Source: Phoronis australis
Lineage: Eukaryota; Animalia; Phoronida
DNA: 35,208 nucleotides
Assembly (NCBI GenBank): GCA_002633005.1
Contig: NMRA01000393.1
Coordinates: 197,210-232,417 of the forward strand
Direction of reading: 5' to 3'
Numbering within the stretch: the first letter of the stretch is position 1; the number at the start of each line of letters is the position of its first letter. The translations under genes and the position numbers were made by a program. This document shows positions 10,101 through 13,100 of the stretch, piece by piece. The notes beneath the pieces are model-generated. The model worked only from the letters and a program-made list of their open reading frames with translations, was not told the origin of the DNA and ran no database searches.

Positions 10101-13100
10101 TGCACCCTTACCATGGGTGTGCACCCTTACCATGGGTGTGCACTCTTACCATGGGTGTGCACTCTTACCGTGGGTGTGCACTCTTATCACACACACTTCA
10201 CAAAAACTTACCACTTCTTGTTGACTCGGGCACTTGTTGTTGCAGGGTTCAGAGAGGCAAGCTAAGACAGGTGCTGCAGGCCAGCGACTTAAAGAGGCGA
10301 CTAAAATCAACCTGTCCCTTTCCACTCTTGGTAACGTAATCTCAGCTCTTGTAGATGGAAAGAGTAGTCACATACCTTACAGGAACTCCAAGTTGACACG
10401 TCTGCTGCAGGACTCACTGGGAGGCAACTCTAAAACTGTCATGGTGAGTCAGCAAACCTAGTATGCAAACCTATTTTCATGTTGACTGCACAAATACCAG
10501 GTGAGATACTCTTGACATAGGAACAAAATAAATCAAATGTTTGAACATGACCTCGGGCAAAATTGTCCACAAGCATTTGATGCTTATGCTTGAACTCCAC
10601 ATTACTGTTATCTGCTTCAGTTGATGGAGATGAGAATCACATCTTTGACAAGAAAATGGAGATTTGTGTAACACATACAAATGTGCTGTCCACGAATCTT
10701 TTTGTTTGTTTGTTTGTTTGTTTGTTTGTTTGTTTGTTTGTGGTAGTGTAGCCTTCTCATGTGTTCCTGCTGTATGAAAGTCTTGTGTAGAGTATGATGA
10801 GCAGTGTTACATTTGCAATGTTTTCTCTTGTCTTTGTAACATACAACTTTGCCAACATACAATATGATTTTAAAAATTAAAAGTTTTTTTGAGACAGGCA
10901 AACAAAGCCTACATAGAGTGCGTAATTTAGTGACACATCTTTTCTCATGACTCTAAAATCATCCTCTGAGGAAATCTCTCATAATTCTGTGTTATGTTGT
11001 AGCACGCCAGCTGCGGTCCAGCTGATTATAACTATGGTGAGACGATCTCAACATTTTGTTTTAGTGCGCCAACAGTGGTCCAGCTGATTATAACTATGAT
11101 GAAACCATCTCAACATTGTGTTTTAGTGCGCCAACTGTGCTCCAGCTGATTATAACTATGATGAAACCTTCTCAACATTGTGTTTTAGTGCGCCAACTGT
11201 GGTCCAGCTGATTATAACTATGATGAAACCTTCTCAACATTGTGTTTTAGTGCGCCAACTGTGGTCCAGCTGATTATAACTATGATGAAACCTTCTCAAC
11301 ATTGTGTTTTAGTGCGCCAACTGTGGTCCAGCTGATTATAACTATGATGAAACCTTCTCAACATTGTGTTTTAGTGCGCCAACTGTGGTCCAGCTGATTA
11401 TAACTATGATGAAACCTTCTCAACATTGTGTTTTAGTGCGCCAACTGTGGTCCAGCTGATTATAACTATGATGAAACCTTCTCAACATTGTGTTTTAGTG
11501 CGCCAACTGTGGTCCAGCTGATTATAACTATGATGAAACCTTCTCAACATTGTGTTTTAGTGCGCCAACTGTGGTCCAGCTGATTATAACTATGATGAAA
11601 CCTTCTCAACATTGTGTTTTAGTGCGCCAACTGTGGTCCAGCTGATTATAACTATGATGAAACCTTCTCAACATTGTGTTTTAGTGCGCCAACTGTGGTC
11701 CAGCTGATTATAACTATGATGAAACCTTCTCAACATTGTGTTTTAGTGCGCCAACTGTGGTCCAGCTGATTATAACTATGATGAAACCTTCTCAACATTG
11801 TGTTTTAGTGCGCCAACTGTGGTCCAGCTGATTATAACTATGATGAGACCATCTCAACATTACGATACGCCAACCGAGCCAAGAACATCAAGAACAAGGC
11901 CAAGATCAATGAAGATCCAAAAGACGCGCTACTGCGTCAGTTCCAGCAGGAGATTGAGGCGCTACGCAAACAGTTACAAGAAGGTGACGTGAAATTTTGT
12001 GCTGGCATCCGTGTAACAAGTTCACTTCTCAAGTCTAGTGATTTGTGAAGTTCGTAATTGCATAAGTCAGATACCCTCACAGTTCTTGAAATCCATGTCG
12101 TCATTGACGTAGAAAATAATCTTCATCCAATAGGGAGCATTGAATGAAAGCTGAATGCAGTTGTTGAATGCTTGCCTAAAACATCAGAGTATGAGAGGTC
12201 ACGTCTCATGGCCAGTTTTAAACTCCACTTGACTCGTGTGAATATGAGTAAGAGACTAGTGTACTGATGTTAGTGGTGCACGTACACACACACACTGTGC
12301 TCATTGTTAGTTTGGCATTCTTTGTAACTTCGCTAGTAACGTAGAGTGCTTACTAGTAAACGAGCTGTGTAATCACTGACAGTATTACTAGCAGTAGAAA
12401 TAGTTTTAGTAGTATTTACTACTACTAGTTGCAATGCATTCAACAGGCTGGTCTCTTTTCAACAGTGACTTTGTCTACCTTGTCCTGTTTTAAAGAGAAC
12501 TCGAAAAGTTCCAGAATCAGAAAATTATCTGAGAAGACGTGATATGAAATTAGAAACGTAACATTTTTGCAGCAAAGTTTGGAAGTTGAGACAAATATTA
12601 GACTTAACACAAAAATGAACTTAAGTCAGTTTCTTGGAATGGGTGCCAAGCTTTTGTTGGATTATCTCCTACAAAGAAATATTCTAGTTCTAAAAATCAA
12701 ATCAATGTCAGGTGAACTGTTAGTCATATCAGTATCCATATCGTCTATACAGTTCTAGGTGAACTGTTAGTCATAGCAGTATCCATATGGTCTGTACAAT
12801 TGCAGGTCCATAGTCTACAGATCTAGGTGAACTGTTAGTCATAGCAGTATCCATATAGTCTGTACAGTTGCAGGTCCATAGTCTACAGATCTAGGTGAAC
12901 TGTTAGTCATAGCAGTATCCATATAGTCTGTACAGTTGCAGGTCCATAGTCTACAGTTCTAGGTGAACTGTTAGTCATAGTAGTATCCATATAGTCTGTA
13001 CAGTTCTAGGTGAATTGTTACTCATATCAGTATCCATATAGTCTGTACAATTGCAGGTCCATTGTAGTTATGTGAAGACTTTTTCCTAATTTCTTTTCTG

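Follow-up and report, generated by a model that had tools for sequence, protein, structure and literature searches.

The closest described systems are the 'mirage' minisatellites of amphioxus, in which the 3' end of an intron together with an exon's 5' part are repeated in tandem within the intron (PMC3087553). According to the available text of that report, the centre of such an array is under concerted evolution, from which the edge copies are excluded. The mirage of the globin gene BflGb6 comprises six units in one haplotype and three in another, and RT-PCR shows normal splicing (PMC3087553). Other amphioxus mirages lie in BflGb9 and Adh3, the latter with units of 10-72 bp and somatic length variation (both cited in PMC3087553), and in troponin C and PGBD5 (PMC3902484); in the text available of the two reports, no aberrant mRNA accompanies these repeats. 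A related arrangement is the 37-bp VNTR in IVS7 of human F7, where five to nine identical donors are present and the exon-adjacent one alone is used. As far as the accessible text goes, the pseudo-donors become functional once the first donor is lost, and the mechanism was tested with 50 constructs (PMC1557585). Our literature search for mirage-type repeats in lophotrochozoans, which covered largely papers outside subscription, returned nothing relevant; the mirage papers retrieved concern lancelets, and the available part of PMC2206037 does not mention mirages.

The locus described here lies in a stretch of 35,208 nucleotides (the window, meaning the whole stretch of DNA that was analysed) and repeats the start of an exon of KIF3A together with the end of the preceding intron. 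We interpret it, with a probability of about 0.8, as a mirage minisatellite seated on a KIF3A acceptor, made by slippage or unequal crossing-over, the extra copies of which are spliced out with the intron. The array is most likely neutral, a harmless stretch that is spliced past.

A kinesin-2 gene, KIF3A, was located on the + strand by homologue searches and tblastn. Its model comprises fourteen GT-AG exons between 5453 and 21759, which together encode 693 residues uninterrupted by a stop; the kinesin motor domain is followed in a single open frame by the coiled stalk and the tail, and identity to named KIF3A is 81%. The ATG exon is outside this model. The sequence ATG CCT followed by GTAAGT at 1192-1197 (+) is a candidate short start exon of KIF3A. 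The exon starting at 11809 is the 7th of the 14 modelled exons, and its designation as exon 8 in the original prediction presumes a short ATG exon. The best full-length matches listed are 80-81% identical, to annelid, brachiopod and mollusc KIF3A, and no lancelet name occurs among the 120 homologue matches listed. A careful tree of 20 rows, composed without lancelet, hemichordate or echinoderm rows and omitting unnamed rows and several molluscs, places the protein among lophotrochozoans at 85/88 with no resolved sister; the brachiopod sister position seen in a quick tree of 48 rows (SH-aLRT 91) was lost in this careful tree. Judged from these sequence comparisons, the host is probably a lophotrochozoan and not a cephalochordate.

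The features of the array and its surroundings are as follows.

10246..10443, + strand: KIF3A motor-domain exon upstream of the array (exon 7 of the original prediction), with a phase-0 GT donor; Pfam Kinesin at 234-300
10964..10994, + strand: look-alike of the unit tail, in register, 24 of 32 columns matching the unit
11003..11064, + strand: copy 1, the most diverged, with its acceptor AG at 11001-11002 and G39 kept
11065..11188, + strand: copies 2 and 3, both carrying a private change of their own and both with A39, which goes with ATC in copy 2 and with TTC in copy 3
11189..11808, + strand: copies 4-13, in the window assembly ten units of 62 nt without differences among them (for their number, see the DNA contig depth of 15.1 against 6.33 and the simulation below)
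11766..11770, + strand: branch-point-like motif CTGAT in exon-derived sequence, predicted by motif match, its A at -40 from 11809
11809..11983, + strand: the true exon (exon 8 of the original prediction), 175 nt, encoding the end of the motor domain and the neck; the opening 52 nt form the 14th unit

At this intron/exon boundary, 14 units stand head to tail at 11003+62k, the last of them being the true exon start. Each of the 13 upstream units of 62 nt consists of 52 exon-derived nt and 10 intron nt ending in AG, and TAG directly precedes all 14 units. TRF reports the array at 11005-11861 with period 62, 13.8 copies, 98% matches and a score of 1630, far beyond chance. The unit anatomy claimed from a first reading of the DNA (10 nt of intron plus 52 nt of exon start, in 13 upstream copies) thus holds in the window sequence, as does the claim of a homogenised interior and a diverged edge, copies 4-13 being identical and copies 1-3 divergent. 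From the first 52 nt of the exon, the ten identical copies differ at two positions, a silent G39A and an A43T that changes Ile to Phe, while copies 1, 2 and 3 show six, two and three differences, respectively, and copies 1-2 retain ATC.

The same reading had taken the intron end at 11002 as the ancestral one, which is not borne out, as the stretch at 10964-10994 itself resembles the unit tail in register. In its exon-derived part, 15 of 19 columns match the unit, a value equalled or exceeded in 2.5% of 1027 control windows, and none of the 12 other acceptors is preceded by a comparable resemblance. This stretch is possibly a decayed further copy, or else a short homology that seeded the first slip. 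We propose that the 62-nt intron/exon piece was multiplied by replication slippage or unequal crossing-over, the first slip perhaps being seeded by the look-alike. The acceptor move of 806 bp originally deduced agrees with the geometry of the window; its origin and size are less certain, and the copy number found no backing in the one DNA run considered below.

When the exon at 10246-10443 is joined to each of the 14 acceptors, 13 lead to a stop after 363 or 417 residues, and the only acceptor giving the open 693-residue frame is that at 11809. The predicted outcome of unit retention, a frameshift or stop, was confirmed in that a premature stop lies behind all 13 upstream acceptors. A tandem exon cassette was rejected, given that 62 is not a multiple of 3, that these same stops follow and that the four GT sites of the unit are unlike the donors of the gene.

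The working acceptor has 41 AG-free nt before its AG and 14 pyrimidines in 20; these values and the distance of its CTGAT fall inside the range seen at the other KIF3A acceptors. It had been noticed that exon-derived sequence alone lies upstream of this acceptor, which proved correct in the window, and the best branch-point-like motif predicted there is CTGAT. The branch point used with 11809 would then be situated in sequence of exon origin, at -40. The AG is kept in all 13 upstream copies, and acceptors 4-13 share their last 48 nt with the working acceptor; because they have its context, sequence is unable to choose among them. The last acceptor defines an exon of 175 nt, within the range of the KIF3A exons (102-198 nt), whereas the upstream acceptors would define exons of 237-981 nt, outside that range, which makes exon definition from the donor at 11983 the likely chooser. 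Exon definition is an established model, and under it the spliceosome would pick the acceptor nearest to the exon's own donor. Nonsense-mediated decay would clear any mis-spliced RNA as a likely backstop.

Three stranded RNA runs (X6, X7 and X8) with the same species label were aligned to 11781-12620, 18-19% of each being read. In X6 and X7, the exon is covered to a depth of 11-52, on the strand expected; 43 reads in X6 and 26 in X7 link the exon at 11809-11983 with that at 16768, and X8 contributes about one read to the exon. Depth in the 28 nt upstream of 11809 is 0.25, 0.29 and 0.04 in X6, X7 and X8, corresponding to 7, 8 and 1 letters, compared with 11 (X6) and 10.7 (X7) in the first bin of the exon. 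No unit-retaining reads occur in X6-X8, where the upstream letters number fewer than the 10 intron letters that a single retaining read would contribute. On the simplest reading, the 7, 8 and 1 letters would be that many spliced reads matching the G common to the end of exon 7 and the end of the intron. Depth drops from 52 to 11 towards the 5' end of the exon, which means that reads are lost there. Array-derived RNA reads were likewise absent; at the rate of unspliced reads in the next intron, about 20 would be expected across 806 nt, an estimate that is weak, being derived from about 14 reads. Steady-state RNA reflects accurate acceptor choice and decay of mis-spliced RNA alike and does not separate the two, and the clean splicing in the RNA animals may reflect a short or absent array. 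In the next intron, at 12097-12196, individual reads of X7 and X8 depart from the window sequence at 7-9 letters, so that the species label spans quite divergent haplotypes. A high-copy dispersed repeat starts at about 12570-12620, with RNA reads of both strands numbering in the hundreds and a DNA depth above 2000.

Further arrays are seated on splice junctions of KIF3A and of the neighbouring gene.

5677..5930, + strand: acceptor-spanning array in KIF3A, 50 nt x 5.1 (TRF), about 43 nt of intron and 7 nt of exon, with the exon at 5924
17357..17472, + strand: donor-spanning duplication in KIF3A, 56 nt x 2.1 at the donor at 17376 (TRF)
17997..18199, + strand: decayed donor-spanning array in KIF3A, about 68 nt with GGAG/GTGAGT (junction at the slash) four times, donor at 18000; junction located by inspection, TRF starting at 18015
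20358..20614, + strand: donor-spanning array in KIF3A, 36/37 nt x 7 at the donor at 20367 (TRF)
24653-31855, - strand: TRMT9B-like (tRNA methyltransferase 9B) gene, convergent with KIF3A; its long last exon has about 640 codons and low similarity
26555..26984, - strand: acceptor-spanning array in the TRMT9B-like gene, 58 nt x 7.4, adjoining the long last exon on its upstream side, the exon boundary deduced from sequence

By TRF coordinates, four of the eight KIF3A arrays of at least 100 nt span a junction, compared with 0.9 expected (P 0.008). Leaving out the array at 11005-11861, the count is 3/7 (P 0.04), and 4/7 (P 0.005) when the decayed array at 17997-18199 is included; five shorter KIF3A arrays outside the count span no junction. 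These figures suggest that arrays seated on junctions are a general tendency affecting acceptors and donors alike, rather than a special device. Intron makes up most of the unit at 5677-5930, which allows a branch point to be carried along with it. At 20358-20614, units of 37 and 36 nt alternate in a higher-order period of 73 nt, and one copy is without the CAG/GT context. The exon-derived part of the array at 26555-26984 has drifted far from the real exon, with CAC for CAG in two copies. Arrays at 27238-27484 and 27588-27798 (-) carry AG/GT motifs (TAG/GTAAT; CAAG/GT) close to what may be a small exon of the TRMT9B-like gene, and may be further junction repeats. For this gene, Pfam gave no match in the 645-residue frame at 24653-26590, and the TRMT9B homologue search returned no close relative (best 69%). 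Two regions, at about 14400-15940 (+, in a KIF3A intron) and about 28920-30200 (-, in the neighbouring gene), look by eye like diverged copies of one dispersed element of about 1.5 kb.

How many copies the array on the exon at 11809 has is a separate matter from its nature. It may be real and short, with about 3-5 upstream copies, the ten identical units being a product of assembly looping or one long allele. This is a serious possibility at somewhat less than even odds, and it is compatible with the mirage explanation, in which array size alone would change. The main evidence comes from a DNA run, X1, in which a 90-nt contig matches 11781-11846 without difference and ends before 11847, the flanking contig beginning at 11817. 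Both ends of the 90-nt contig are branch points of the window's 31-mer graph; the contig thus crosses the last decoy-exon junction with the predicted ends, and the junction is present in the reads. Its depth is 15.1, compared with 6.33 in the flank, where the window predicts an 11-fold excess for the collapsed units; contig depth is, however, no strict copy number, and this is one contig of one run. When ten identical copies were simulated on one haplotype or on both, mean depth was 40-150, and in each of 18 settings none of 150 runs came down to 15.1. The best fit was one identical copy per haplotype, with 1-2 compatible.

The lack of array-derived RNA reads points in the same direction, and a run of identical units like copies 4-13 is absent from the other five junction arrays inspected. 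A single N at 10007 directly precedes another array, 19 nt x 9.4 (10007-10186), and probably marks an assembly joint at a repeat, as in scaffolded assemblies. On the other side, the X1 flank differs from the window by three letters and two indels in 791 nt, so X1 may represent another haplotype or animal. Looping, moreover, could not have produced the private changes in copies 1-3, and identical central units do occur in young minisatellites, as described in the accessible text of PMC3087553. We take the X1 depth as a hint of an animal with fewer copies than the window or of variable length. The copy number is probably variable; the animal may carry fewer than 13 upstream copies, and the assembly may overstate their number.

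The relationship between the array and the expressed exon is a further question. G39A deletes the sole AG between CTGAT and the acceptor, so that the AG-free stretch is 41 nt instead of 21, and A43T adds a pyrimidine ahead of the acceptor. That these changes make exon-derived sequence more intron-like is suggestive, as a post hoc observation on two changes. In the mirage explanation, there would be an occasional exchange between array and exon, in which the silent A39 would be tolerated and the T43 changing Ile to Phe would be selected against. Among 69 homologous proteins fitting the motif pattern, out of 218 fetched, the Ile of the exon corresponds to Ile in 66, Val in two, Leu in one and Phe in none. 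The original prediction raised the possibility of a conversion of the exon from Ile to Phe, and the read check at 11851 shows no such variant: no difference is listed there in runs with about 16 RNA reads each at a threshold of three reads. At 11847 (unit position 39), by contrast, a silent G/A variant is present, with the array's A in 9/16 and 12/15 exon reads. A second silent variant lies at 11974 (25/48 and 20/32 reads), and the chance of one of the two coinciding with this very position of array difference is about 0.03. We regard the A at 11847 in expressed exons as a hint of shared history of exon and array; such an RNA difference needs DNA from the same animal for a confident reading.

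A more far-reaching alternative is that the array has been shaped as a new intron end, swapping letters with the exon by unequal crossing-over under a selective filter. The lengthened AG-free stretch, the added pyrimidine and the silent A in the expressed exon are consistent with it, as is the distribution of letters at position 39, where copy 1 has G and copy 2 has A together with ATC. However, it builds on just two substitutions spotted post hoc, and five of the 13 other modelled KIF3A acceptors work with an AG-free stretch below 18 nt, so that the gain may be small. Descent of the array from an exon allele with A explains the shared letter equally well, and the RNA variant is subject to the requirement for same-animal DNA given above. 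We therefore consider such shaping unlikely. It is similarly doubtful that the first 52 nt of the exon are the 14th member of a living array, in which letters would be exchanged, the silent A at 11847 passed and the change from Ile to Phe blocked, and in which a piece of coding sequence would have turned into an intron end with an exon-born branch point.

Frequent use of the upstream acceptors, which would tune the KIF3A level via nonsense-mediated decay or truncate the motor before the neck, is very improbable: the AG in every copy, the 48 nt shared by acceptors 4-13, the premature stop behind each upstream acceptor and the F7 pseudo-donors that work after loss of the first (PMC1557585, available text) would all allow it, but no read in X6-X8 extends into an upstream unit, the arrays on other junctions of KIF3A and the next gene have no common pattern, and the amphioxus mirages, as far as the accessible accounts tell (PMC3087553, PMC3902484), are without aberrant mRNA.

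A mirage minisatellite that is spliced past would extend this class of repeats to a probable lophotrochozoan, and it serves as a warning that gene models and assemblies can be led astray by such arrays. Provided that splicing is correct in animals carrying a long allele, the locus offers a test of position-based 3' splice-site choice, an acceptor counterpart of F7 IVS7. If exchange between array and exon is true, it shows one way for variants to enter a conserved motor exon from intronic repeats; the silent shared variant A at 11847 is the one lead worth following. Should the array be a living one, in a lineage where a large proportion of intronic minisatellites start on junctions, the result would be a natural genome-wide test of position-only choice among at least ten identical acceptors.

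In comparison with the amphioxus mirages, as far as the available text describes them, the KIF3A array shares the tandem units of intron 3' end and exon lying in an intron, the occurrence of acceptor and donor forms, and the homogenised centre with diverged edges. Its unit of 62 nt is within the 10-72 bp given for the Adh3 mirage, and, where amphioxus RNA is spliced normally, the few RNA reads examined for KIF3A show no retained unit. The differences concern the host, a probable lophotrochozoan instead of a lancelet; the number of upstream copies, 13 in the window compared with the three to six units of BflGb6; and the evidence for allele length variation, which BflGb6 has, whereas the KIF3A array is known from one assembly and a depth hint. 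Unlike in the amphioxus mirages, the KIF3A unit is mostly exon (52/62 nt), so the intron part of the unit cannot carry the branch point along. With F7 IVS7, the array has in common that the edge unit spans the exon-intron boundary and that position, not sequence, decides, as established by constructs in F7 (available text of PMC1557585) and as we infer for KIF3A. F7 IVS7 repeats a donor and the KIF3A array an acceptor: a 5'-to-3' scan fits F7, whereas in KIF3A it would select the first acceptor, which is the wrong one, so that definition across the exon is needed here.
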